NCBI GenBank assembly: GCA_900544825.1
Contig: UQWP01000001.1
Coordinates: 15,881-79,880, forward strand
Origin: an uncultured Prevotella sp.
Lineage (GTDB): Bacteria; Bacteroidota; Bacteroidia; Bacteroidales; Bacteroidaceae
Length of the DNA: 64,000 nt
Reading direction: 5' to 3'
Shown here in pieces: positions 4,159 through 61,717 of this stretch. Under the pieces are notes generated by a model. It did not search any database. It had not been told where the DNA came from and was given only the letters and a program-made list of their open reading frames with translations. The translations under genes and the position numbers were made by a program. The stretch's first letter is position 1. Each line of letters starts with the position of its first letter.

Positions 4159-6489
4159 ATGAGAAAACATTTTATCTATACATTATGGGGCATTTTTGCC
4201 ACCTTTATCGTGTCGGCTATGCTCGCCTTCTTTGCCATCTGGAACGGATGGATCGGTTACATGCCAGACATCGAGGATCTGCAGAATCCTATCAGCAGAT
4301 TCGCCACTCAGGTGTATTCGTCGGATGGAAAGGTGCTGGGTACATGGAACCTGAACAAGGAGAACCGTATCGTGATACCTTATAAGAAGATGTCACCTTA
4401 TTTAATAAAGGCACTGGTTGCCACGGAGGATGAACGATTCTATGAGCATTCGGGCATCGACTTCCGTGCGCTCGGTCGTGCCATCGTGAAGCGTGGACTC
4501 CTGGGACAGACCAATGCCGGTGGTGGATCTACCATCACCCAGCAGCTTGCCAAGCAGCTCTATTCCGAAAAGGCATCGAGCACCCTGGAGCGACTGCTGC
4601 AGAAACCGATAGAGTGGGTCATCGCCATCAAGCTGGAGCGATACTATACCAAGCAGGAAATCCTGGCACTCTATCTCAACTACTTCGACTTCCTACACAA
4701 TGCCGTGGGTATCAAGACGGCAGCGAATACCTATTTTGATAAGGAACCGAAGGATCTTACCCTCACCGAGGCGGCTACGCTCATCGGTCTCTGCAAGAAC
4801 CCTTCGCTCTTCAACCCTGTACGCTATCCGGAGCGTGCCCGCGACAGAAGAAACGTGGTGCTCTCGCAGATGGTGAAGGCGGGCTATTTGGATCGTGCTG
4901 AATACAGCCAGTATTCGGCAGAACCGCTTACGCTCAACTTCCACCGTACCGACCATAAGGATGGTTCGGCTACCTATCTGCGCGAATATCTGCGCAAGTA
5001 TCTGATGGCTACCCGTCCGGAAAGAAAGGATTATGCATCCTGGAACTATGCCCAGTTTGTTACCGATTCCATCCTCTGGAATACCGATCCTCTGTATGGA
5101 TGGTGCAACAAGAACTTCAAGAAGGACGGTTCTCCATATAATGTGTATAGCGATGGTTTGAAGGTGTTTACCACCGTGGATAGCCGTATGCAGCGATACG
5201 CCGAAGAGGCTGTATATCAGCATGTGGCGCGCTACCTGCAACCAGCCTTCAGCAAGGAGGTTTCCCGCAAGCCAAGTTCACCATACAGCGACAAGCTGAC
5301 ACCAAAGCAGATCAAGGTTATCCTGAACCGCAGTGTTACCCAGTGCGAGCGCTACCGACAGATGAAGGAAGCGGGATGCTCGGCAGAAGAGATTCACGAT
5401 ACCTTCCGCAAGAAGATTCCGATGACTGTGTTTACCTATCATGGTGACATCGATACGCTGATGAGTCCGCTCGACTCCATCCGCTATTACAAGACCTTCC
5501 TGCGCAGCGGATTCATGAGTATGGATCCTAAGACGGGTGCCGTGAAGGCATACGTGGGTGGATTGGACTATACCCACTTCATGTATGATATGGTAAGCCT
5601 GGGAAGAAGACAGGTGGGTTCTACCATCAAGCCATTCCTCTACAGTCTGGCGATGGAGAACGGATTCTCGCCTTGCGATTTGGCGCCTAACCGTCAGCAG
5701 ACCTATATGGTGGCTGGCAGACCATGGACGCCGCGCAATGCCAACCATTCGAGATACGGACAGATGGTTCCGCTGAGCTGGGGATTAGCACAGAGTAACA
5801 ACTGGATCAGTGCCTATCTGATGAGTAAGCTGAACCCATCGCAGTTTGTCCAGCTGCTGCACGACTATGGAATCAACAACCCTGATATTCATGCCTCTCT
5901 GAGCTTGTGTCTCGGACCATGCGAGGTGAGCGTGAGCGAGATGGTAAGTGCCTATACCGCCTTTGCCAACCATGGTATCCGTACGGCTCCGATGTTTGTG
6001 AGCCGCATCGAGGATAACGAGGGTAACACCCTTGCTACCTTCCAGCCACGAATGAACGAGGTAATCAGTGCCGACAATGCCATGAAGATGCTCACCATGA
6101 TGATGGGCGTAGTGGATAATGGTACGGCAGGAAGACTGCGCTACCGCTATAAGCTGGAGGGACAGATTGGTGCCAAGACGGGTACCACCAATAATAACAG
6201 CGACGGTTGGTTCATCGCCTTTACTCCGCAGCTGGTAAGTGGCTGCTGGGTAGGCGGTGAGGAGCGCGATATCCACTTCGATTCCATGAGTATGGGTCAG
6301 GGTGCTACCATGGCGCTGCCTATCTGGGCTATCTTCATGAAGAAGGTGTATGCCGATACCTCGCTGGGCTACAGTCCGGAGGTGAAGTTTGATATCCCTG
6401 CCGATTACAATCCATGCTATCATGTGGGCAGCGGTGGCGAGCAGGATGATTTCGAACAGGTGGACGCCATCGACGAAGTATTCGAATAA
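4159..6489 (+). CDS. mrcA: Penicillin-binding protein 1A (bifunctional glycosyltransferase/transpeptidase)
   Basis: N-terminal TM helix, transglycosylase motifs ([23 protein letters not shown]), transpeptidase motifs (SxxK as GSTIKP; KTGT as KTGTTNN). ORF opens at 4102, but the signal/TM start [13 protein letters not shown] at 4159 is more plausible. Confidence 0.9.
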
Positions 6490-6530
6490 TTCTTCGGGAA
6501 GTGCTCCTGATGCCGTCATCAAAAGGCTAT

Positions 6531-6587
6531 CCGCCATTTTTGCACTCATTTCTTTTAAATAGTGCAAAAATGGCGGATGTTTTTTGC
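6531..6587 (+). terminator. Intrinsic terminator after PBP1A gene: 16-bp perfect stem CCGCCATTTTTGCACT / AGTGCAAAAATGGCGG followed by TGTTTTTTG
   Basis: Perfect inverted repeat at 6531-6546 and 6561-6576, then a T-run. Confidence 0.7.
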
Positions 6588-6606
6588 TTATCTCCATTAT
6601 TTTTTG

Positions 6607-6614
6607 TATTTTTG
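6607..6614 (+). promoter_or_regulatory. -7 box TATTTTTG upstream of pheT
   Basis: TAnnTTTG match ~90 nt upstream of the pheT start. Confidence 0.3.
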
Positions 6615-6704
6615 CAAAGTTTTAGGGCTCTTGTAACACAAATGCGTGATGACGAGGAGGTTCCCAAACACTTGATAAAGAGAAAATAATAAAAAAACAT
6701 TATA

Positions 6705-9173
6705 ATGAACGTTTCATACAAATGGCTTAAAGAATACGTCGATTTCGACTTGACACCACAGGAGACTGCCGATGTGCTGACCTCTTGCGGACTCGAAGTG
6801 GACGCTTTGGAGGAAGTACAGTCTATCAAGGGTGGACTGAAAGGTCTTTACGTAGGTAAAGTGTTGACATGCGAGGCGCATCCTAACAGCGATCACCTCC
6901 ACGTAACAACCGTTGACTTGGGCAAGGGCGAGCCACAGCAGATTGTCTGCGGTGCTCCTAATGTTGCTGCAGGTCAGAAGGTAATCGTTGCCGACCTGGG
7001 CTGCGTGCTCTATGACGGCGACCAGAGTTTTACCATCAAGAAGAGCAAGCTCCGCGGTGTAGAGAGCTTGGGTATGATCTGTGCTGAGGATGAGATTGGC
7101 GTGGGTACATCTCACGACGGTATCATCGTGCTCCCAGAGGATGCTCCTGTAGGTCAGCCTGCTGCCGAGTACTATCACCTGGAGAGCGACTGGCTCATCG
7201 AGATTGATATCACTGCCAACCGTGCCGATGCACTCGGTCATTGGGGTGTAGCCCGCGACCTCTATGCCTGGTTGAAGCAGAACGGTTATGAAACCAGTCT
7301 GCATCGCCCATCTTGCGATGAGTTCGTAGTGGATAACGAGGATCTTCCTATCAATGTAGAGATTGAGAACACCGAGGCTTGCAAGCGCTATGCCTGTGTA
7401 AGCATCACCGACTGCGAGGTGAAGGAGAGTCCTAAGTGGTTGCAGGATAAGCTGAACATCATCGGCTTGCGACCAATCAACAATATCGTGGATATCACCA
7501 ACTACATCATGATGGCATACGGTCAGCCATTGCACTGCTTCGATGCAGATATGGTTACCGGTCATAAGATTGTAGTCCGCACCCAGCCAGAGGGCACCAA
7601 GTTCATCACTCTCGATGGCGAGGAGCATACCCTGGGTGAGCACGACCTGAGCATCTGCAATGCTGAGGAGCCAATGTGTATCGCCGGTATCTTCGGCGGT
7701 AAGGGTTCCGGTACTTACGAGACCACCAAGAGCGTGGTTCTGGAGAGTGCTTACTTCCACCCAACATGGATTCGCAAGAGCGCTCGCCGTCACGGTTTGA
7801 GCACAGATGCCAGCTACCGTTTTGAGCGTGGCGTAGATCCAAACGGACAGATCTATGCATTGAAGCAGGCTGCTATCCTCTGCAAGCAGTTGGCTGGCGG
7901 CAAGATTTCCATGCAGATCAAGGATGTATATCCAGAGCCAATGCAGGATTTCCCAGTTCGCCTGAACTATGAGTATGCGCATCGCCTCATCGGTAAGGAG
8001 ATTGGTGCTGACACCATCAAGAGCATCGCTACTTCTCTCGAGATGAAGATCGTGAAGGAAGATGCTGAGGGCATCGACCTCCTGGTTCCTGCTTATCGTG
8101 TAGATGTTCAGCGTCCTTGCGACGTGGTTGAGGATATCCTCCGTATCTACGGATATAATAATGTGGAGATTCCAACCCAGTTGAAGAGTTCTTTGACTGT
8201 TCAGGGCGATGAGGACAAGGCTTATCACAGCCAGAACCTCGTGGCAGAGCAGTTGGTAGGCGAGGGCTTCATGGAGATTCTCAACAACTCTCTGACCAAG
8301 ACCAGCTACTATACCGACCTGGAGCTGAACAAGTATCCGATGGAGAACGTAGTGAAGGTGATGAACCCATTGAGTGCTGATCTCGGCGTAATGCGCCAGA
8401 CCATGCTCTTCGGCGGTTTGGAGAGCGTAGCCCGCAACATCAACCACAAGAGCCAGAACCTGAAGTTCTTCGAGGTGGGTAACACCTATATATATAATAA
8501 GGAGAAGTGGAGCGAGGAGAGTCCTATCAAGGCTTACTCTCAGGAGGCTCACATGTCACTCTTCATCACCGGTAAGCGCGTAGAGGGCAATTGGGCTCAT
8601 GCAGATGAGCAGAGCAGCATCTACGAGTTGAAGGCTGTGGTAGAGAATATCCTCCGCCGTGTAGGTATGCCACAGAATAATCTCGTAATCAAGCACAGCG
8701 ACAACAATATCTTTGCCAAGGGTGTGAACTACGAGACCCGTGCCGGCAAGGTATTGGTAGAGATGGGTATCCTGAGCCACAAGCTGAAGAAGGCATTCGA
8801 TATTGAGCAGGATGTATTCTATGCTGATGTTCACTGGGATAACCTGATGAAGACCGTGAAGAAGGTGAACCTTACTTACACAGATATCAGCAAGTATCCA
8901 TCTGTGAGCCGCGACCTTGCGCTGCTCGTAGATAAGAACGTAGAGTTTGCCCAGATTGAGCAGATTGCCCATCAGACCGAGAAGAAGCTCCTGAAGAGCG
9001 TGGTACTCTTCGACGTATATGAGGGTAAGAACCTGCCAGAGGGCAAGAAGAGTTATGCCGTAAACTTCATCCTCCAGGATGAGGAGAAGACATTGAATGA
9101 CAAGCAGATTGATGCTATCATGAAGAAGCTCATTGCCAACCTCACAGGTAAGCTCAATGCAGAGTTAAGATAA
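6705..9173 (+). CDS. pheT: Phenylalanine--tRNA ligase beta subunit
   Basis: 822 aa. N-terminus MNVSYKWLKEYVDFDLTPQE... is typical of the tRNA-binding domain. B3/4, B5 and FDX-ACB domain organisation fits the length. Confidence 0.95.
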   Translation: MNVSYKWLKEYVDFDLTPQETADVLTSCGLEVDALEEVQSIKGGLKGLYVGKVLTCEAHPNSDHLHVTTVDLGKGEPQQIVCGAPNVAAGQKVIVADLGCVLYDGDQSFTIKKSKLRGVESLGMICAEDEIGVGTSHDGIIVLPEDAPVGQPAAEYYHLESDWLIEIDITANRADALGHWGVARDLYAWLKQNGYETSLHRPSCDEFVVDNEDLPINVEIENTEACKRYACVSITDCEVKESPKWLQDKLNIIGLRPINNIVDITNYIMMAYGQPLHCFDADMVTGHKIVVRTQPEGTKFITLDGEEHTLGEHDLSICNAEEPMCIAGIFGGKGSGTYETTKSVVLESAYFHPTWIRKSARRHGLSTDASYRFERGVDPNGQIYALKQAAILCKQLAGGKISMQIKDVYPEPMQDFPVRLNYEYAHRLIGKEIGADTIKSIATSLEMKIVKEDAEGIDLLVPAYRVDVQRPCDVVEDILRIYGYNNVEIPTQLKSSLTVQGDEDKAYHSQNLVAEQLVGEGFMEILNNSLTKTSYYTDLELNKYPMENVVKVMNPLSADLGVMRQTMLFGGLESVARNINHKSQNLKFFEVGNTYIYNKEKWSEESPIKAYSQEAHMSLFITGKRVEGNWAHADEQSSIYELKAVVENILRRVGMPQNNLVIKHSDNNIFAKGVNYETRAGKVLVEMGILSHKLKKAFDIEQDVFYADVHWDNLMKTVKKVNLTYTDISKYPSVSRDLALLVDKNVEFAQIEQIAHQTEKKLLKSVVLFDVYEGKNLPEGKKSYAVNFILQDEEKTLNDKQIDAIMKKLIANLTGKLNAELR

Positions 9174-16858: not shown

Positions 16859-18106
16859 CTATTCGTATCTCATCGATTTGGCTGGATGGATATGAGAGAT
16901 GAGGTAACTTGGCGCTACCAGCATGAAGATGCTGATGAGGAGGGTGGCTATGTTCAGTGCCACGATGAAGAGCCAGTTGAATTCTACCGGTACCATACTT
17001 ACGTAGTAAGTCTGGGCATCGAGCTTCACCATTCCCGTGAAATGCTGCAGGGCAAGAAGTCCCAGTCCGATGATATTGCCCAGTAACATTCCCTTGCCGA
17101 TGATGAATACGGCAAACCAGAGGAAGGTGTGACGGATGGTCTTGTTGCGTGCACCCAGAGCTTTCATCACTCCAATCATCGAGGTTCGCTCCAGGATGAT
17201 GATGAGCAATCCGCTGATCATCGTTACGCCTGCCACGATGAGCATCAGTCCCAGGATAATCCATACATTCAGGTCCATCAGGCTGAGCCATTGGAAGATG
17301 TTCGGGTTCAGCTCCTTGATGGTAGCGCTGCTGTAGGTTTCTCCGTAATGATCTACGGTACGGTTCACCTTATTTATAATATAGTCTTCCGTCTCGTTGA
17401 GCTTGTCGAAGTCCTTCACGGTCAGTTCGGCACCGCTTGCCTGGTCATCTTCCCATCCATTCAGCTTCACGGCTGTATAGAGGTCGGTATAGACCATCAG
17501 TTCATCATACTTCTTGAGATTGGTCTCGTAGATACCCTTGATTGTGAACCGGCGCATTCTCACGCCCTGGTTGTCGATGAAGTAGGCGAAGATGCGCTCG
17601 CCGTTCTTCAGCTTCAACTTGTCTGCCATCAGCTTGGAAATCAGAATCTGATTATGGCTGGCTTTGTCATCAAACTTCGGTATGCTTCCTTCCACCATGT
17701 TCTGATGGATGAAGGTAGAATCGAAGTCCGGTCCCACACCCTTGAGCACCACGCCCAGGAAATCGTTGTCGGTCTTGAGGATTCCTTCTTTCATGGCAAA
17801 GCGCTGCACATGTTTCACGCCCGGAATCTTCTGGAGTACCTTCACCATCGAGTCGTTCATCACCACCGGATACTGGTTCTGCTGCTGCAGGGTCATGAAG
17901 TCGGCCACCTGGATATGGCTTCCGAAGCCAATCACCTTGTCGCGGATGGTGTGCTTGAATCCCAGCACCACGCATACCGACATGATCATGATGGCGAGTC
18001 CGATGGCAACACCGGCTGTGGCAATATGAATAGCAGGGCGAGAAACTTTACGTTTGTCGCCCTGATCACTATATAATCTCTTTGCTATAAACAGAGGAAA
18101 ATTCAT
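16859..18106 (-). CDS. ABC transporter permease, FtsX/LolC-LolE family
   Basis: 415 aa. N-terminal TM helix, large periplasmic domain and a C-terminal cluster of TM helices (...IILGLMLIVAGVTMISGLLIIILERTSMIGVMKALG...) are typical of LolE/MacB-type permeases. Confidence 0.85.
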   Translation of the reverse strand: MNFPLFIAKRLYSDQGDKRKVSRPAIHIATAGVAIGLAIMIMSVCVVLGFKHTIRDKVIGFGSHIQVADFMTLQQQNQYPVVMNDSMVKVLQKIPGVKHVQRFAMKEGILKTDNDFLGVVLKGVGPDFDSTFIHQNMVEGSIPKFDDKASHNQILISKLMADKLKLKNGERIFAYFIDNQGVRMRRFTIKGIYETNLKKYDELMVYTDLYTAVKLNGWEDDQASGAELTVKDFDKLNETEDYIINKVNRTVDHYGETYSSATIKELNPNIFQWLSLMDLNVWIILGLMLIVAGVTMISGLLIIILERTSMIGVMKALGARNKTIRHTFLWFAVFIIGKGMLLGNIIGLGLLALQHFTGMVKLDAQTYYVSMVPVEFNWLFIVALNIATLLISIFMLVAPSYLISHIHPAKSMRYE

Positions 18107-18110
18107 ATTT

Positions 18111-18151
18111 ACATTGAACTTTGAACATTGAACTTTGAACTTTATGATTAG
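18111..18151. repeat. Leader repeat element ACATTGAACTTTGAAC(ATTGAACTTTGAAC)TTTATGATTAG immediately 5' of the lolE-like start (minus-strand sense); second copy at 27373-27406
   Basis: Near-identical ~35-bp sequence found directly upstream of or overlapping the start codons of two unrelated minus-strand genes. Confidence 0.55.
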
Positions 18152-18228
18152 CTTAGACTATTGAATTGGCTTTCCCTTCGGACGCCGAACGTTGTTTCTT
18201 CACTCTTCACTCTTCGTTCTTCACTTCC

Positions 18229-24519: not shown

Positions 24520-27375
24520 TTATTTTATATAATTCTTAAGAAATTTACCAGTTAAGCTCGTTTTGCATGCTGCTACTTCCTCAGGAGTACCAGCTATCAC
24601 GAGGTTACCGCCCTTGTCGCCACCCTCAGGACCGAGGTCGATGATATGGTCGGCACACTTGATGATATCCAGGTTATGTTCGATAACTACCAAGGAATGA
24701 CCACGTTCTATCAGCGCCTGGAAAGCATCGAGCAATCGCTTGATATCATGGAAGTGCAGACCGGTGGTTGGCTCATCGAAGATGAAGAGCGTAGGCGACT
24801 GGTCTTCCTTGCCGATAAAGTAGGCGAGTTTCACACGCTGGTTTTCACCGCCGGAGAGGGTGCTGGAGTTCTGGCCGAGCTTGATATAGCCCAGTCCAAC
24901 CTCCTGCAAAGGCTTGAGCTTGCTGACGATGATGCGGCAGGCATCGAAATCGCCCACATGGTGCTGGAGCTTTTCATCGCTGAAGAACTCTATCGCCTCG
25001 TTCACGGTCATGTTCAGCACATCATTGATATTCTTTCCTCCGTAGTGCACCTCCAGGATATCGTGCTTGAATCGCTTGCCCTTGCATGCCTCGCAGGTAA
25101 GGGTGAGGTCTGCCATAAACTGCATCTCGATGGTTACGTATCCTGCTCCCTTGCATTCCTCGCATCTTCCGCCCTCGGTATTGAAGGAGAAGTATTGTGG
25201 GGTGAATCCCATCTGCTTGGCGAGTGGCTGGTTGGCAAAGAGGGTGCGGATGGCATCGTATGCCTTCAGATAGGTGGCAGGGTTGCTGCGGGTACTCTTG
25301 CCGATAGGATTCTGATCTACAAACTCCACATGCTTGATGGCATCCACATCGCCTTCCAGCGAACTGTATTCGCCAGGTGCATCTGCCACCAGGTCTAGAT
25401 GGCGACGGAGGGCAGGGTAGAGGATTCCCTTGATGAGGGAACTCTTGCCCGAACCGGATACGCCGGTGATGACGGTGAAGATGTTGAGCGGAATCCTAAC
25501 ATCGATGCCGCGGAGATTGTTCATTCGTGCTCCCTTGATCTCGATGGCTCTGTTCCATGCACGATGACTGGTAGGAACGGCAATCTCCTCCTTGTGGGTG
25601 AGATACTGAATGGTATGACTCTCCGGGAATTTCTCCAGAAGGGCTTTCTGCTTCTCTGGGTCGGTGGATGAGTATTCGGATGAAGGACCGGCATATACTA
25701 GTCTTCCACCCAGTCTTCCTGCCTCCGGACCGATATCGATGAGATAATCGGCAGCACGCATAATCTCTTCATCGTGCTCTACTACGACCACGGTGTTGCC
25801 CAACTGCTGCAGCTCTCTCAGAACCTTGATGAGTCGGTCTGTATCTCGGCTATGGAGTCCGATACTTGGCTCGTCGAGGATATACACGCTGCCTACCAGC
25901 GAAGAACCGAGGCTGGTGGTCAGGTTGATGCGCTGGCTCTCTCCTCCGGAAAGGGAGTTGGAGAGACGGTTGAGGGTGAGGTAACCAAGTCCCACATCCA
26001 GAAGGAATTGCAGGCGATGGGTTATCTCTGCCAAGAGTCGCTTGCCCACTTCTCGCTCATGCTCTGTCAGCTCCAGCTTCTGGAACCATGCGCTGAGATT
26101 GGTAATCGACATATCCACCAGTTCGGTGATGCTCTTTCCGCCAATCTTCACATAGTTGGCTTCCTTCTTGAGTCGGGTGCCATGGCAATCCGGACAGATG
26201 GTCTTTCCGCGGAATCGGCTCAGCATCACGCGGTATTGTATCTTGTACTGGTTCTCCTTCACCATTCTGAAGAATTCGTCGATGCTCACTCTGTCGTGTG
26301 GGTCGCGCTTCTTATCTGAAGGCAGTCCATGCCAGAGCCAGTCCTTCTCCTTCTGGGTGAGTTCGTAGTAAGGCTTGAAGATCGGGAAGTTGTATGGCTC
26401 TGCACGTCGGATGAATTCCTTGAGCCACATACCCATCTTCTCTCCACGCCAGCATACCACGCATCCATCGTAGAGACTCATGGAAGTGTTAGGGATGACG
26501 AGCTTCTCGTCGATGCCGATCACGCTTCCGAATCCTTCGCAGGTAGGACAGGCGCCCAATGGGGAATTGAAGGCAAACATATTGTCGGTTGGTTCCTCGA
26601 AGGTGATGCCGTCGGCTTCGAACCGGGTAGAGAAATCGTAGCTGATATTGCTCGGCAGGAAGAGGAGACGGCAGGCACCGTCGCCCTCATAGAAAGCAGT
26701 CTCGGCAGAATCGATGAGGCGGCTGATGTCATCCTTCTCGTCGCTTACCGAAGCACGGTCGATGACGAGGAAGATATCCTCCGGCTTGGCATCGCCCTGG
26801 AAATCGTCGATGCGGATAAATTCACCTTTCACCAGTATGCGTGCGTATCCCTCCTGAAGATACATCTCCAGTTGCTTTTCCAGACTTCTGCCTTCTATGA
26901 TATGTAAAGGGGCAAGGATTACAAACTTGGTGCCCTTGGAAAACTGTCGGGTGCATGCCAGTACATCTTCGGTGGTATGGCGCTTTACTTCCTGTCCGCT
27001 GATAGGCGAATAGGTCTTGCCGATACGGGCGAAGAGCAGGCGCAGGTATTCGTAGATTTCCGTGCTGGTGCCCACGGTAGAACGTGGGTTGCGGGAAATC
27101 ACCTTCTGTTCGATGGCGATGGCAGGAGGCAATCCCTTGATGAAATCACACTCCGGTTTGCTCATTCTGCCCAGAAACTGGCGGGCATACGAAGACAGCG
27201 ACTCCACATACCGGCGCTGTCCTTCGGCATATAGGGTATCGAAAGCCAATGAAGACTTGCCCGACCCGGAGACGCCCGTAATGGCTACAAACTTGCCCTG
27301 TGGTATCTTCACGTCGATATTCTTCAGGTTGTTGGCTCTCGCCCCCTTGATCTCTATATATTTCTCTTTTGACAT
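24520..27375 (-). CDS. uvrA: Excinuclease ABC subunit A (paralog 1)
   Basis: Two ABC ATPase modules ([12 protein letters not shown]..., [12 protein letters not shown]), zinc-finger Cys clusters, LSGGE signatures. Start at MSKEKYIEIKGARANNLKNIDV (27375). The ORF reads through upstream to 27438, but that overlaps rlmH. Confidence 0.95.
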   Translation of the reverse strand: MSKEKYIEIKGARANNLKNIDVKIPQGKFVAITGVSGSGKSSLAFDTLYAEGQRRYVESLSSYARQFLGRMSKPECDFIKGLPPAIAIEQKVISRNPRSTVGTSTEIYEYLRLLFARIGKTYSPISGQEVKRHTTEDVLACTRQFSKGTKFVILAPLHIIEGRSLEKQLEMYLQEGYARILVKGEFIRIDDFQGDAKPEDIFLVIDRASVSDEKDDISRLIDSAETAFYEGDGACRLLFLPSNISYDFSTRFEADGITFEEPTDNMFAFNSPLGACPTCEGFGSVIGIDEKLVIPNTSMSLYDGCVVCWRGEKMGMWLKEFIRRAEPYNFPIFKPYYELTQKEKDWLWHGLPSDKKRDPHDRVSIDEFFRMVKENQYKIQYRVMLSRFRGKTICPDCHGTRLKKEANYVKIGGKSITELVDMSITNLSAWFQKLELTEHEREVGKRLLAEITHRLQFLLDVGLGYLTLNRLSNSLSGGESQRINLTTSLGSSLVGSVYILDEPSIGLHSRDTDRLIKVLRELQQLGNTVVVVEHDEEIMRAADYLIDIGPEAGRLGGRLVYAGPSSEYSSTDPEKQKALLEKFPESHTIQYLTHKEEIAVPTSHRAWNRAIEIKGARMNNLRGIDVRIPLNIFTVITGVSGSGKSSLIKGILYPALRRHLDLVADAPGEYSSLEGDVDAIKHVEFVDQNPIGKSTRSNPATYLKAYDAIRTLFANQPLAKQMGFTPQYFSFNTEGGRCEECKGAGYVTIEMQFMADLTLTCEACKGKRFKHDILEVHYGGKNINDVLNMTVNEAIEFFSDEKLQHHVGDFDACRIIVSKLKPLQEVGLGYIKLGQNSSTLSGGENQRVKLAYFIGKEDQSPTLFIFDEPTTGLHFHDIKRLLDAFQALIERGHSLVVIEHNLDIIKCADHIIDLGPEGGDKGGNLVIAGTPEEVAACKTSLTGKFLKNYIK

Positions 27376-27406
27376 TGAACTTTGAGCTTTGAACTTTATG
27401 ATTAGT
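27373..27406. repeat. Second copy of the leader repeat (CATTGAACTTTGAGCTTTGAACTTTATGATTAG) filling the rlmH-uvrA intergenic space and overlapping the uvrA start codon
   Basis: Near-identical to 18111-18151. Confidence 0.55.
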
Positions 27407-52458: not shown

Positions 52459-52706
52459 TTTATACCCTTTCGGGTAATATGATGATATCTATCTTATAGT
52501 ATTATACCCTATCGGGTAAAATGTATAATGTATAATATCGTATTATACCCTTTCGGGGGCAAATATACGAATAAAAAATGAAAATACCCCCGAAAAGGTA
52601 TAATTTATAATATCATTTAACAAAATTATACCTTTTCGGGGGTAAATCCGTAACGAATCCTTTGGGAAATAAAAAAAAGCGTAACGAACACCTTTTTCGG
52701 GTAATC
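52459..52706. repeat. Regularly spaced array of six copies (five direct, one inverted) of the ~22-bp motif ATTATACCyTTTCGGGGGTAAAT upstream of hipB-like gene; ~42-bp period
   Basis: Copies at 52459-52478, 52501-52520, 52542-52564, 52584-52604 (inverted), 52626-52647 and 52688-52706 (partial, inside the yidC terminator loop). AT-rich spacers. Confidence 0.75.
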
Positions 52707-59033: not shown

Positions 59034-60635
59034 TTATTTCTTTGCCGCAAGCTCCTCTGCAGTCAAGTCTTCCGCTTTAGCAGCTTCCAATGCGAGCTTT
59101 TCTGCCTCCTTGGCAGCCTTGGCTTCAGCTATCGCCTTTTCACGCTCTCTGCGCTCCTTCTTCTTCTGCTTGATTTCAGCGTCGCTGCGCTTCTCGAGCA
59201 ATACCACGTTCTCTACGTGAGGAGTATGAGGGAACATATCAACTGGCTGAACAGCAGCTGCTTTGTAGTGGTCGTCCATCAGCTGCAGGTCGCGTGCCTG
59301 AGTAGCAGGGTTGCAGCTTACATATACGATGCGCTTTGGCGCTGCGTTCAGAATCACGTTCACTACATCAGGATGCATTCCGGCACGTGGAGGGTCAGTG
59401 ATGATGACATCTGGGCGACCGTGCTGAGCGATAAAGTCATTGGTCAGGATATCCTTCATATCGCCTGCGTAGAAGAGGGTGTTCTCGATGTTGTTCACCT
59501 GGGAATTCACCTTGGCATCCTCGATAGCCTCTGGTACGTATTCGATACCGATGACCTTCTTTGCTTTGTGAGCCACGAAGTTGGCGATGGTTCCGGTACC
59601 GGTGTAGAGGTCGTAAACCAGCTCGTCGCCGGTAAGGTTGGCAAACTCGCGAGCCACGCAGTAGAGGTGGTAAGCCTGCTCGGTATTGGTCTGATAGAAA
59701 CTCTTAGGACCTACCTTGAACTTCAGGTCTTCCATCAGCTCGAAGATGTGGTCGTTGCCCTTGAAGAGGCTGAGCTCCAGGTCGTTGATGGTATCGTTGC
59801 CCTTTTGGTTATCTACATACATGAGTGAGGTAATCTGAGGGAACTTGTCAGCCACCTGCTGCATCAGCTCCAAGGCTCTCTGCTCATCTCCCTCCTCATC
59901 GTAATGGAACTGGAATACGAGCATCCACTCGCCGGTGTTCGAATTGCGGATCATCATGTCGCGGAGCAAACCGTGCTGCTCACGAAGATCGTAGAAGGTA
60001 TAGTTGTGAGAGTCTGCGTATTCGAAAACGAAGTTGCGGATTTCGTTGCAGAGGTCATCCATCAGCCAGCACTTCTTGATTGGATAAATCTTGTCGAAGG
60101 CACCGGTGATATGGAAACCGATGGCATTCTGGGCATGGCGTTCCTTGAGAGAAGTTACGGTATCATCTTTTTTCTGAGGGAGTTGAGCCAATTCTTCTGA
60201 CGTAAACCAGCGCTTGTTGCTGCATCCGAACTCAATCTTGTTGCGGTACTCCTGGGTTTTCACGCTGCCCATGATAGGGCGGAATTCAGGGAGTTCGATC
60301 TTGCCGATGCGGGTGAGCTGGTCTTCCACCTGCTTCTGCTTCGCCTTGATCTGCTCCTCGTAAGGAAGGTTCTGCCATTTGCAACCGCCACAGATGCCGA
60401 AGTGTTCGCACATCGGTTCCTGTCTCACGTCGCTCTTCTTGATGAAGCGAACTACCTTCGCCTCGCAATACTTATGTTTTTTCTTAACTACCTGCAAATC
60501 TACTACATCGCCAGGCACGCAGAAAGGCACGAAGATGACCTGGTCATCTACGCGAGTGATGCACTTACCCTCGGCTGCTACAGCCTCGATGGTGATGTTC
60601 TCCAAGAGAGGTAATGGTTTACGTTTTCTTGCCAT
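59034..60635 (-). CDS. rlmD: 23S rRNA (uracil-C5)-methyltransferase RlmD-like (TRAM + Fe-S + SAM-MTase) with Lys/Ala/Glu-rich C-terminal tail
   Basis: TRAM domain N-terminus. 4-Cys cluster CEHFGICGGCKWQ. MTase motifs (DLYTGTGTI; PPRAGM). ~60-aa KAE-rich tail ...KQKKKERREREKAIAEAKAAKEAEKLALEAAKAEDLTAEELAAKK. Confidence 0.85.
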   Translation of the reverse strand: MARKRKPLPLLENITIEAVAAEGKCITRVDDQVIFVPFCVPGDVVDLQVVKKKHKYCEAKVVRFIKKSDVRQEPMCEHFGICGGCKWQNLPYEEQIKAKQKQVEDQLTRIGKIELPEFRPIMGSVKTQEYRNKIEFGCSNKRWFTSEELAQLPQKKDDTVTSLKERHAQNAIGFHITGAFDKIYPIKKCWLMDDLCNEIRNFVFEYADSHNYTFYDLREQHGLLRDMMIRNSNTGEWMLVFQFHYDEEGDEQRALELMQQVADKFPQITSLMYVDNQKGNDTINDLELSLFKGNDHIFELMEDLKFKVGPKSFYQTNTEQAYHLYCVAREFANLTGDELVYDLYTGTGTIANFVAHKAKKVIGIEYVPEAIEDAKVNSQVNNIENTLFYAGDMKDILTNDFIAQHGRPDVIITDPPRAGMHPDVVNVILNAAPKRIVYVSCNPATQARDLQLMDDHYKAAAVQPVDMFPHTPHVENVVLLEKRSDAEIKQKKKERREREKAIAEAKAAKEAEKLALEAAKAEDLTAEELAAKK

Positions 60636-60737
60636 AATTCAAATTTGTTTTTTTATGGCTGCAAAGTTAATACATTTTTGTGAGAAATGAAAGAGTTGTC
60701 CCGGATTTTTTCAGTCTTTGTCCCGGATGTTGTGAGG

Positions 60738-60908
60738 TAGGAAGGAATGGAAGAAGGGGAAGATAGGAGGGGAATGGGGGAAGGAGAGGAAGGGAAAAGG
60801 TGAAAAAGTGAAAGTGAAAAGGTGAATGAGGTGAATGGTGAACGAGGTGAATTTGATGAAAATGGTGTATGCAGCGAATTGCAAAAAGGTCAAAAGGTCA
60901 AAAGTGAC
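60738..60908. repeat. Purine-rich (plus strand) microsatellite-like block: GA-rich run, then GGTGAAA/GTGAAAG units, GGTGAAT units, AAAAGGTCA x2-GTGAC
   Basis: ggaaggaatggaagaaggggaagataggaggggaatgggggaaggagaggaagggaaaaggtgaaaaagtgaaagtgaaaaggtgaatgaggtgaatggtgaacgaggtgaat...aaaaaggtcaaaaggtcaaaagtgac. Confidence 0.8.
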
Positions 60909-61150
60909 TTTTCGTAAAAAGACGAAGGGTTGATGACTGGCTCTTGAATATCGTTGATGACAGGTTCTTGTATATTCATGTTGAAGATTTCTTCTATATA
61001 TAATTGTAGTACTTACGCGCGTACATTATTATATGGATTTTTAATAATTAATGGTATTTAATAATCTTAATCTTGGCATATTGATAATTATTATATGATA
61101 TTTAGGATTCGTCTCATTTCTGTTCTTTGAAAAATCACATTCGTAAATTC

Positions 61151-61300
61151 GGCAGATTCACCCAATTCACCATTCACCACATTCACCTTTTCACTTTCAC
61201 CTTCACTTTTTCACCTTCACTTTTTCACTTTCACCTTTTCGCTTTTGTCAAATGTGACTTTTGACCTTTTGACCTTTTGACCTTTTGCCCCTTTTGGATC
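61151..61300. repeat. Pyrimidine-rich (plus strand) block that is the reverse-complement counterpart of 60738-60908: ATTCACC x4, TTTCACC/CTTCAC units, GTCAAATGTGAC, TTTTGACC x3
   Basis: attcacccaattcaccattcaccacattcaccttttcactttcaccttcactttttcaccttcactttttcactttcaccttttcgcttttgtcaaatgtgacttttgaccttttgaccttttgaccttttg. Confidence 0.8.
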
Positions 61301-61387
61301 TTCACCCATGCTCTCTCCCGATGTCCCCTTCGAACCCCAGTTCCAGGCGATTCCATCGCCTGTCCCTTTCCTCTCTCGATGCCCATT

Positions 61388-61453
61388 TTCCTACGTCGCG
61401 ACGTAGCAATTCCTGCGTCCCGACGTAATAATTCCTGCGTCGCGACGTAGGAA
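61388..61453. repeat. Three in-phase tandem copies of a 22-bp near-palindrome (ideal TTCCTACGTCGCGACGTAGGAA); candidate operator/iteron-like array ~265 bp upstream of ppdK
   Basis: ttcctacgtcgcgacgtagcaa | ttcctgcgtcccgacgtaataa | ttcctgcgtcgcgacgtaggaa. GC-rich island in an AT-rich intergenic region. Confidence 0.8.
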
Positions 61454-61649
61454 AAAGAAGGCCTTGAAGGGAACTCAGCCCCTCAAACTGTCAGAATCTC
61501 TTTCTTTGCCAACTTATAATTTCCTCTCAATCGTTGCATATTGATAGTAGATTGTTAAAAATAGCCCCGTGTGTGCGACAACAGTGTGAAATGTAATCTC
61601 GAGATAGCAAAAAAGAGTATAAAAGTTTGGTGGTTTCAGAGAAATGTTG

Positions 61650-61657
61650 TATATTTG
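61650..61657 (+). promoter_or_regulatory. -7 box TATATTTG upstream of ppdK
   Basis: gttgtatatttgcatc, ~60 nt upstream of the ATG at 61718. Confidence 0.4.
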
Positions 61658-61717
61658 CATCATCAAAGTAGTTTGATAATAACTAGAATTATATAATATT
61701 TTTGAACCTATAACAAA

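Follow-up and report, generated by a model that had tools for sequence, protein, structure and literature searches.

What are the three head-to-tail 22-bp near-palindromes that lie upstream of ppdK, the pyruvate phosphate dikinase gene, in Segatella (Prevotella) copri? Few human gut bacteria are as abundant or as much studied as this species; to our knowledge, its non-coding DNA is almost uncharacterized. An earlier note on the window (the whole 64,000-nucleotide stretch of DNA analyzed here) had proposed either a dedicated operator array for a dimeric regulator or a set of iterons.

The array in the rlmD-ppdK spacer

The array sits in the 1082-bp spacer between the diverging genes rlmD and ppdK (Table 1), and we found the same locus on human-gut metagenome contigs, amid housekeeping genes (pyrG, yidC, and others). 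Database proteins that match exactly or almost exactly bear source names such as "RlmD [Segatella copri]." Tandem Repeats Finder (period 22, 2.9 copies, score 98) and a repeat finder both bore out three near-palindromes without spacers at 61388-61453. The mismatch counts given previously were also right: relative to the ideal palindrome TTCCTACGTCGCGACGTAGGAA, there is one mismatch in unit A, one in unit C, and four in unit B. The repeat finder listed the three units as a family of three members and in addition as a single inverted repeat with 34-nt arms (85% complementary) across the whole array because unit A is approximately the reverse complement of unit C.

The extent of three units, as first described, held for the clear units only. 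The element is longer, with one decayed unit on each side, and the 66-bp array and its two decayed end units together make up 110 bp (61366-61475). These end units could be detected only by comparison with other copies of the family described below. The one at 61366-61387 is the counterpart of a "..GCATCGGGAGG.." flank that adjoins arrays in many other contexts, and the one at 61454-61475 overlaps a weak hairpin at 61463-61487. The "sharp GC-rich island" of the earlier note was not borne out: GC content is 55% in the array and 57% in the 100 nt upstream of it, and just the downstream side (39%) and the AT-rich center further upstream (27%) are lower. Elsewhere in the 64-kb window, the 12-mer core ACGTCGCGACGT had a single match, with two mismatches, which is chance level.

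Table 1. Features of the rlmD-ppdK region, with positions in the window
Feature	Position	Strand	Remarks
rlmD (TRAM/U5-methyltransferase)	59034-60635	minus	
Large palindrome, left arm	60737-60925	.	Purine-rich short tandem repeats GAGGAAGG, GTGAAA, GGTGAAT, AAAAGGTC
Large palindrome, AT-rich center	60926-61147	.	27% GC; palindrome TACGCGCGTA at 61014-61023; 24-bp x2 tandem repeat at 60929-60976
Large palindrome, right arm	61148-61365	.	Pyrimidine-rich mirror of left arm; array at outer end
Decayed in-phase flanking unit	61366-61387	.	Reads AATGGGCATCGAGAGAGGAAAG on minus strand
Unit A, TTCCTACGTCGCGACGTAGCAA	61388-61409	.	Core TACGTC-GC-GACGTA; in 30/30 ppdK loci picked without the motif
Unit B, TTCCTGCGTCCCGACGTAATAA	61410-61431	.	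Asymmetric CC center; most degenerate of the three units
Unit C, TTCCTGCGTCGCGACGTAGGAA	61432-61453	.	Approximately the reverse complement of unit A
Decayed flanking unit, ppdK side, AAAGAAGGCCTTGAAGGGAACT	61454-61475	.	Aligned to GGGCATCAGGAG / GCGCATCGGGAGG of other clades
ppdK promoter-like site, TTTG-N20-TATATTTG	61626-61657	+	Bacteroidetes pattern; context, outside the element
ppdK (pyruvate phosphate dikinase)	from 61718		

To place the array relative to the ppdK promoter, a scan for sigma-70 promoters and terminators was rejected as uninformative for this phylum, and the Bacteroidetes promoter pattern TTTG-N18-22-TAnnTTTG was used instead. This pattern matched 12 times in the window compared with 0.85 expected matches. 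The match at 61626-61657 ends 61 nt before the ppdK ATG, and it therefore puts the array center ∼245 bp upstream of the likely ppdK transcription start.

We obtained 30 ppdK loci via three RlmD protein variants, that is, independently of the motif. All 30 had the three-unit array at a distance of 264-266 nt from the ppdK ATG; it occurred in seven sequence variants, none of which had an indel. Therefore, the ppdK copy is old and fixed in the lineage. An RlmD homologue search for distant relatives returned 98-99% identical S. copri variants alone. Other clades of the S. copri complex, whose PpdK is 99% identical as a protein and ∼87% identical at the nucleotide level, carry a three- or four-unit array at the same position. 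There the cores match and the linkers and surroundings differ, so that the conservation of the array across clades is limited to its cores. Among members of the S. copri clade, conservation of the array is no higher than that of the 265 nt downstream of it. The number of units at ppdK was constant in at least 39 loci, while the adjoining short tandem repeats freely gain and lose units. A different segment of the spacer, a nearly invariant block of ∼110 nt that runs from GATTGTTAA to the -7 box (∼61550-61660) and contains the promoter-like site, is shared by three S. copri clades. Judged by its sequence conservation, this promoter-proximal block is a better candidate than the array for the control of ppdK.

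A dispersed family of phased arrays

We scanned one genome per species for the exact 18-mer TTCCTRCGTCSCGACGTA and retrieved 64 loci, 13 of which were in the S. copri complex or in Prevotella sp.; the rest (∼50) were single matches, roughly as many as chance would give, and came mostly from high-GC taxa. Eight of the 13 Segatella/Prevotella loci were the ppdK locus of different species-level genomes, and the other five lay elsewhere, with three or four units each and the same 22-bp period. By this strict 18-mer, a representative genome holds one or two loci, far below classical REPs, which number tens to hundreds of copies in a genome. A looser two-unit pattern yielded at least 120 loci in a metagenome scan; all those listed were 36%-50% GC and carried exactly one array each, on contigs whose taxonomy comes from GC content and gene similarity only. 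A scan of viral contigs gave four high-GC chance matches and one real match, at a chromosomal-type HU-like locus. Among the genome and metagenome matches listed, the family has so far been seen in the S. copri complex and related gut Prevotella only. The earlier note had named, as part of its refutation, a motif missing both from orthologous ppdK upstream regions and from the rest of the genome. This did not occur, since the motif is in every sampled orthologous ppdK upstream region of the S. copri complex and elsewhere in the genomes.

Pooling the scans gave at least 135 arrays with 98 distinct sequences. The usual array has three to five units and most often four (four units in 52, three in 29, and five in 14); the ppdK copy has three. 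Units were gathered with a core pattern, allowing at most two mismatches. Each 22-nt unit contains a 14-nt palindromic core with the consensus TRCGTC-SS-GACGYA. Of the 393 pairs of neighboring cores in the arrays listed, 389 had a spacing of exactly 22 bp and none a spacing of 21 or 23 bp. With one representative per context, the core carried 1.61 bits per position compared with 0.38 for the linkers, a difference that is partly built in because the units were gathered by the core pattern; this bias does not touch the non-seed units, the invariant 22-bp spacing, or the sharp ends of the arrays.

Three features of the arrays bear on the origin of the copies. First, the array ends of the main subfamily, AAAyTrCG...CGyArTTT, recur across contexts, and those of the ppdK/HU subfamily read TTCCTrCG...CGyAGGAA. 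Second, the outer units are mutually reverse complementary, linkers included (0.65 identity compared with a background of ∼0.43). Third, in four-unit arrays the left units have CCCG centers and the right units CGGG centers (position 1, 21:2; position 4, 0:35), and the CC..GG arrangement in four- and five-unit arrays makes the entire array itself palindromic. The ends, outer units, and centers indicate that the copies share descent and did not arise independently as binding sites.

Grouping the arrays with 100 nt of flank gave ∼45 sequence contexts among the matches listed, partly non-independent, since several are paralogous or have a common flanking "tail" module. All but one were intergenic. 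For the ∼30 contexts in which both neighbors could be called, ∼11 gene pairs were divergent, ∼10 convergent, and ∼9 tandem, and in ∼9 contexts the array lay 2-92 nt past a stop codon. The neighbors included genes for HU-like DNA-binding proteins, SusC-like receptors, hybrid two-component regulators, glycoside hydrolases, ABC ATPases, and orphan AAA ATPases, as well as ruvA together with a diaminopimelate dehydrogenase gene. One array was found between a PglZ-type response regulator gene and dnaE, which are convergent, and another between convergent genes past an ordinary hairpin-plus-T terminator. A Pfam scan of 101 flanking proteins detected no family common to the contexts, whether regulator, Rep, transposase, or any other. 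We also considered whether GAGGCTYAYTTGA, seen beside many arrays, is the end of a conserved protein, and rejected this, as the reading frames have just 5-46 codons. Overall, the distribution of the arrays is that of REP-type repeats and not that of the operator of a regulon.

An in-frame copy was found in a phage gene for a tape-measure protein, where its 66 bp encode 22 residues of the C-terminal linker. The same 22 residues occur in close homologues, and in distant ones a gap of variable length lies there, so an insertion is plausible, not proven. Rickettsia palindromic elements (RPEs), which are 100-150 bp long, can likewise sit in frame in protein-coding genes. The tape-measure copy resembles them in encoding 22 residues of a variable linker; RPEs differ in not being made of phased 22-bp units.

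These contexts bear directly on the proposal of a dedicated operator or activator array, in which a dimeric regulator bound to the three phased palindromes controls ppdK and/or rlmD. Tandem palindromic operators such as paired ARG boxes are bound by cooperative dimeric or hexameric repressors and lie at the promoters of a coherent regulon. The arrays share with them palindromic half-sites (TRCGTC) and a fixed helical phasing (the 22-bp period), both of which suit a dimeric protein. They differ in that ∼10 of the ∼30 scorable contexts are convergent, promoter-less spacers and in that the functions of the neighboring genes are unrelated. The statement of the earlier note that no regulator gene is adjacent at ppdK was right, as the neighbors are rlmD and ppdK, and this too speaks against an operator. 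The same arrays occur between convergent genes, just past stop codons, past a terminator, and inside a phage gene, and at ppdK the array is distant from the promoter-like site while the control region conserved across clades is promoter-proximal. In favor of an operator, the array is fixed at a constant distance from ppdK in all of the motif-independent loci, its cores are kept at this position in three clades with differing linkers, and it lies on the ppdK side of two independent insertion sequence (IS) insertions (see below). Fixation, constant distance, and retention on the ppdK side are also expected of a functional upstream element. Since fixation and position would fit a functional site too, we keep a small probability for the operator reading, which we regard as very unlikely.

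The iteron proposal, in which the array would serve a replication origin or a plasmid or phage partition site beside an AT-rich unwinding region, fared worse still. Iterons are direct repeats of 17-22 bp with a period of ∼22 bp, in three to seven copies and often near an AT-rich segment. The 22-bp period and the three to five copies found here are iteron-like, and a segment of 27% GC lies 240 bp away. The units, however, are palindromic and not directional; no rep or par gene was found within ∼10 kb, where the neighbors are housekeeping genes (pyrG, yidC, rlmD); and no plasmid or phage setting is apparent for an element that occupies dozens of chromosomal sites among the matches listed. No Rep family was found among the 101 flanking proteins of the other copies, and the AT-rich segment is the center of a separate large palindrome that is absent beside many arrays. 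We consider an iteron set exceedingly improbable. The comparisons thus show that the ppdK array belongs to a family dispersed in any gene orientation, and they establish the points that set it apart from an operator and from iterons.

Base pairing and half-sites within the units

A family of this kind could be maintained as a hairpin or as a site on duplex DNA. In the first case, the array would act as a REPIN- or REP-like hairpin, in single-stranded DNA or RNA form, that is moved by an HUH/Y1-type transposase elsewhere or that stabilizes upstream mRNA 3′ ends. The predicted DNA fold of an 81-nt stretch with the array was strong (-27.3 kcal/mol; z = -9.7), was matched by none of 200 shuffles, and consisted of a single hairpin carrying an apical hairpin. 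The palindromes are nested, each unit being palindromic and the outer units pairing mutually. The ∼9 contexts just past stop codons are consistent with a hairpin as well, as is the in-frame intragenic copy, which has parallels in REP and RPE elements.

We examined the stem for compensatory changes. At positions 6 (R) and 17 (Y), the sole variable stem position, the pairs were AT in 80 units, GT in 49, AC in 44, and GC in 30, with a mutual information of 0.02; A-C mismatches are thus about as common as G-T. Watson-Crick pairs numbered 110 compared with 107 expected, and this result was unchanged with one representative per context. Pairings between units within arrays were mixed and mostly null, with no consistent excess. 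There is no sign that base pairing has been preserved, be it within RNA, single-stranded DNA, or a cruciform.

Other observations weigh against the hairpin. In the 101 flanking proteins, the 25 most frequent families did not include a Y1 transposase (PF01797-type). The array past the hairpin-plus-T terminator has that separate, normal terminator ahead of it. At ppdK, the array lies in a divergent promoter spacer, and in the window no T-run follows it on either strand, as an intrinsic terminator would require; the sole terminator-like match nearby is the weak hairpin at 61463-61487, on the minus strand. Rfam gave no significant match on the ppdK spacer and five related loci; its output held a sub-threshold match of a miRNA model to the palindrome and an unrelated cobalamin riboswitch.

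The comparison with known REP elements points both ways. The arrays resemble REPs and BIMEs in being short (20-40 nt) imperfect palindromes that are lineage-restricted and lie between genes of any orientation, in many cases close behind the 3′ end of a gene, with some clusters and an occasional intragenic copy. They differ in that the units are fused at an invariant 22 bp without BIME linker motifs, in that the centers are oriented CC CC GG GG where BIME units alternate in orientation, and in the lack of compensatory changes; their apparent copy number is low (one or two loci per genome by the strict 18-mer). In the REP superfamilies, the stem bears at one end an unpaired tag, GTAG or CGTC (Di Nocera et al., 2013; PMC3733652). 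The units here hold both GTAG and CGTC, but these lie inside the paired stem (CTACGTC..GACGTAG) and not as the unpaired tags of the described families (PMC3733652).

We find a hairpin kept by selection doubtful given the pairing data. Closest to it are the REPIN-RAYT systems, which were reportedly described by Bertels and Rainey in 2011. The likeness lies in the nesting of inverted copies of a small palindrome within a larger one (the outer units are inverted copies, and the ppdK array folds as one long hairpin), in a master-like consensus, and in vertical persistence at loci. The differences are that the usual form here has four units (two plus two) where a REPIN has two, that pairing is not kept up, and that no RAYT, the single-copy Y1/HUH transposase that REPINs typically flank, turned up in the 25 families most frequent in the 101 flanking proteins. 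The literature searched contained no description of a REP-RAYT-type system in Bacteroidota, nor did it contain the core sequences or any REP, MITE, or inverton account for Prevotella or S. copri.

What the units do preserve is the half-site TRCGTC in inverted pairs, with a spacing of two turns. We infer from these features that the arrays carry the signature expected of sequence-specific protein dimers on one face of the duplex. The lack of compensatory pairing makes a phased platform of duplex half-sites more likely than a selected hairpin. The dimeric-protein idea of the earlier note survives to this extent: phased binding on one face fits the kept half-sites, the exact 22-bp period, and the lack of compensatory pairing.

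We therefore favor the view, with a probability of roughly 0.55, that the ppdK array is one copy of a dispersed REP/BIME-like repeat family and likely a duplex platform for a putative dimeric protein; it is the half-site and its exact spacing that are kept, and not the pairing, and so the array is most likely a protein platform. In this model, several dimers of one sequence-specific DNA-binding protein would bind side by side on one helix face of the array, as a spacing of 22 bp, about two helical turns, would align the half-sites. Candidates for the binder are a host protein of the nucleoid type and the enzyme by which the family was spread. The ppdK copy would be an old, fixed passenger ∼245 bp upstream of the promoter, and any effect on ppdK would be generic, for instance that of a roadblock, of a boundary, or of a site where other mobile DNA lands, and not that of a switch specific to carbon metabolism.

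A binding protein would not be needed if the arrays were inert relics of a short mobile or duplicated sequence that was once copied around and is now functionless, at ppdK and elsewhere. Such relics would explain why the neighboring genes have no common function and no evident partner gene, why the outermost units of most arrays have decayed from TRCGTC to TGCATC-type, and why the array is conserved no better than its downstream 265 nt within the S. copri clade. They would not explain why 389 of 393 unit pairs in the arrays listed are free of indels though the linkers differ almost fully between contexts, nor why the unit number at ppdK is constant in at least 39 loci while the adjacent short repeats vary. 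At ppdK, moreover, the cores stay between clades while linkers and flanks are replaced, and in the family as a whole conservation is much higher in the CpG-containing core than in the linkers (in part, as noted, by the way the units were collected). An inert relic thus seems unlikely to us.

Recognition of the family keeps the array from being mis-annotated as a regulator of ppdK. The repeats can be masked or typed with the consensus TRCGTC-SS-GACGYA and its 22-bp period, which also give a means to look for the binding protein. Such a protein, if it exists, would offer a tractable entry to nucleoid organization or repeat mobilization in Bacteroidota. The family may also help to explain intergenic hotspots in S. 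copri, where IS elements and cassettes insert and assemblies break.

The large palindrome and neighboring mobile DNA

The array adjoins the outer end of an imperfect palindrome of ∼650 bp (60737-61385; fold z = -11.2; Table 1). The GC skew of its left arm reaches +0.96, and the inverted partner of this arm is 61148-61365. The motif CGCGCGTAC(A/C)TTATTATAT of its center accompanies arrays in ∼50 of the 135 loci listed, at ppdK, two loci of HU-like genes, and two others. One other clade has arms made of short repeats of quite another kind, and these arms are still 93%-98% mutually complementary; therefore, the two arms evolve in concert. The large palindrome is missing beside many arrays and is therefore a distinct element, albeit a frequent companion of them.

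Another companion of the arrays is a "tail" of 330-430 bp, rich in GTGGCAATA motifs, which adjoins the array in at least 10 other contexts and is separable from it. In one context (L006), the tail and an AAA-ATPase/PD-(D/E)XK gene form a 2376-bp duplicate, one copy of which lies 18 nt from an array and the other without an array. In another, a tyrosine integrase gene ends 36 nt from an array. Two ppdK loci carry IS elements in the spacer: one IS, with 37-nt terminal repeats, is inserted between the right arm of the large palindrome and the array (L048), and a different IS lies in the same spacer in L049. Both are of the DDE type and on the side of the array away from ppdK, and their terminal repeats are their own and bear no relation to the arrays. 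The mobile DNA observed beside arrays thus comprises IS elements, 2.4-kb AAA-ATPase/PD-(D/E)XK cassettes, and an integrase-bearing element. REP elements are known to attract IS insertions, and, given the cassette copy at an array end in L006, array ends here also look like landing sites for mobile DNA.

We looked for target-site duplications at the array ends, and the flanking direct repeats matched those at random positions, with no signal above the control; the ends are fuzzy in this test because the terminal units have decayed. As neither a target-site duplication nor an empty site was found, the mobility of the family is inferred from its distribution and not observed.

The nearest described element in the same bacterial order is the BrickBuilt MITE of Porphyromonas gingivalis; the nearest kind overall is REP/BIME/REPIN. 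BrickBuilt is species-restricted, with 19 copies per genome that are strictly intergenic and lie near normal terminators without replacing them, and each copy has 1-23 repeats with leader and tail segments and IS5-like terminal inverted repeats (Klein et al., 2015; PMC4596501). It shares with the family described here a spacer-less minisatellite (∼23 nt), intergenic placement, and species restriction (PMC4596501). Its unit AGAYCATARTATCCTCTCRTRTG, in contrast, is non-palindromic and has no sequence similarity to the 22-bp family (PMC4596501). The arrays here have three to five units, with no IS5-like termini or target duplications found, and the 330-430-bp tail that adjoins some of them is separable.

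More tentatively, the arrays might be the cis sites of a REP-like but RAYT-less duplex-DNA system in Bacteroidota, in which a single sequence-specific protein would bind the phased TRCGTC half-sites and the array ends would serve as preferred landing sites for mobile DNA. Together with the large palindrome and shared promoter segments, they might then form movable "upstream-region modules" before highly expressed genes such as ppdK and the HU-like genes.

The AT-rich center of the large palindrome was considered as an invertible promoter and rejected, as it has the same orientation in all 42 ppdK loci compared. An apparent flip between two loci (L004 and L020) arises because the core of the center is itself palindromic.

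Palindrome and insertions in the rlmD-ppdK spacer

The array in the spacer between rlmD and ppdK is accompanied by an imperfect palindrome of ~650 bp (see the table). One arm is purine-rich and the other pyrimidine-rich, both are built from short tandem repeats, and the centre (27% GC) holds TACGCGCGTA at 61014-61023. HU-like gene loci show this layout too. The arms found in another clade are wholly unlike those of the window in sequence, yet they are still 93-98% complementary to each other, so the two arms evolve in concert. In one genome (L035), the loop of the small hairpin reads GGAA rather than TCCA (given as the reverse complement). The change amounts to a loop inversion like those that template switching produces.

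The spacer ranges from 984 to 2739 bp across genomes, and in two S. copri strains, different DDE-transposase IS elements were inserted within it. A solo terminal-repeat remnant adjoins the array at two further loci (L053 and L008).

Coordinates of repeat, promoter and IS features (positions in the window unless a locus is named)
Feature	Position	Strand or orientation	Remarks
Imperfect palindrome	60737-61385		~650 bp
Small hairpin CAGGCGAT-TCCA-TCGCCTG	61344-61362
TTGTCCCGGAT... x2	60696-60736		Spacing exactly 22 bp; just upstream of the rlmD promoter
rlmD promoter -7 box TAACTTTG	60662-60669	minus
IS element	L048 5331-6999		DDE transposase, 421 aa; 37-nt terminal repeats
IS element	L049 5579-6556		DDE transposase, 325 aa
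Heptamer repeat CATTGAACTTTGAAC...TTTATGATTAG	18105-18150 and 27373-27405		Two short spacers, near-same sequence
Heptamer run TCTTCAC x4	18197-18225
Small hairpin motif TATACCCTTTCGGGTA and variants	52460-52640	both	Five copies; intergenic

Promoter regions of rlmD and ppdK

The ~110 nt up to and including the ppdK promoter (about 61550-61660) are near-invariant in three S. copri clades, among which the rest of the spacer differs. This promoter-proximal block is likely the real ppdK control region. Promoter segments of rlmD and ppdK (60660-60747 and 61642-61666) also resemble the promoter region, at 2796-2891 of locus L004, of an HU-like gene unrelated to them; the rlmD segment matches it at 77% across 90 nt and the ppdK segment at 92% across 25 nt. 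Since this likeness exceeds that expected from the promoter consensus alone, it suggests that promoter modules were copied from locus to locus. The same TTGTCCCGGAT-type two-unit motif with a 22-bp period precedes HU-HIG gene promoters at three loci (L004, L020 and L145); the motif may be a true regulator site, or else what is left of an array after decay.

RlmD is annotated as 545 aa in most database variants, whereas the open frame in the window (59034-60671) permits only 533 aa. The 545-aa start, which would overlap the predicted promoter in the window, may be an over-extension.

Cassettes and genes adjoining arrays at other loci

In at least six contexts, an array has an orphan AAA ATPase gene as its neighbour, and these genes belong to three families. 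At one locus (L006), a 2376-bp segment is present in two copies (187-2562 and 4799-7174; 97.5% identical), one of which abuts an array while the other does not. The segment consists of a conserved "tail" with GTGGCAATA repeats and an AAA-ATPase_like/PDDEXK_9 gene. At another locus (L023), a three-unit array-like segment (6626-6691) lies in frame inside a phage tail tape-measure protein gene, in a variable C-terminal linker; it encodes ~22 residues, which close homologues retain.

Other repeats in the window

The CATTGAACTTTGAAC...TTTATGATTAG heptamer repeats apparently lie directly upstream of start codons on the minus strand in both spacers. Copies of the TATACCCTTTCGGGTA hairpin span ~180 bp, some arranged as a 41-bp tandem repeat; the cluster may be a separate feature, either operator-like or a repeat.
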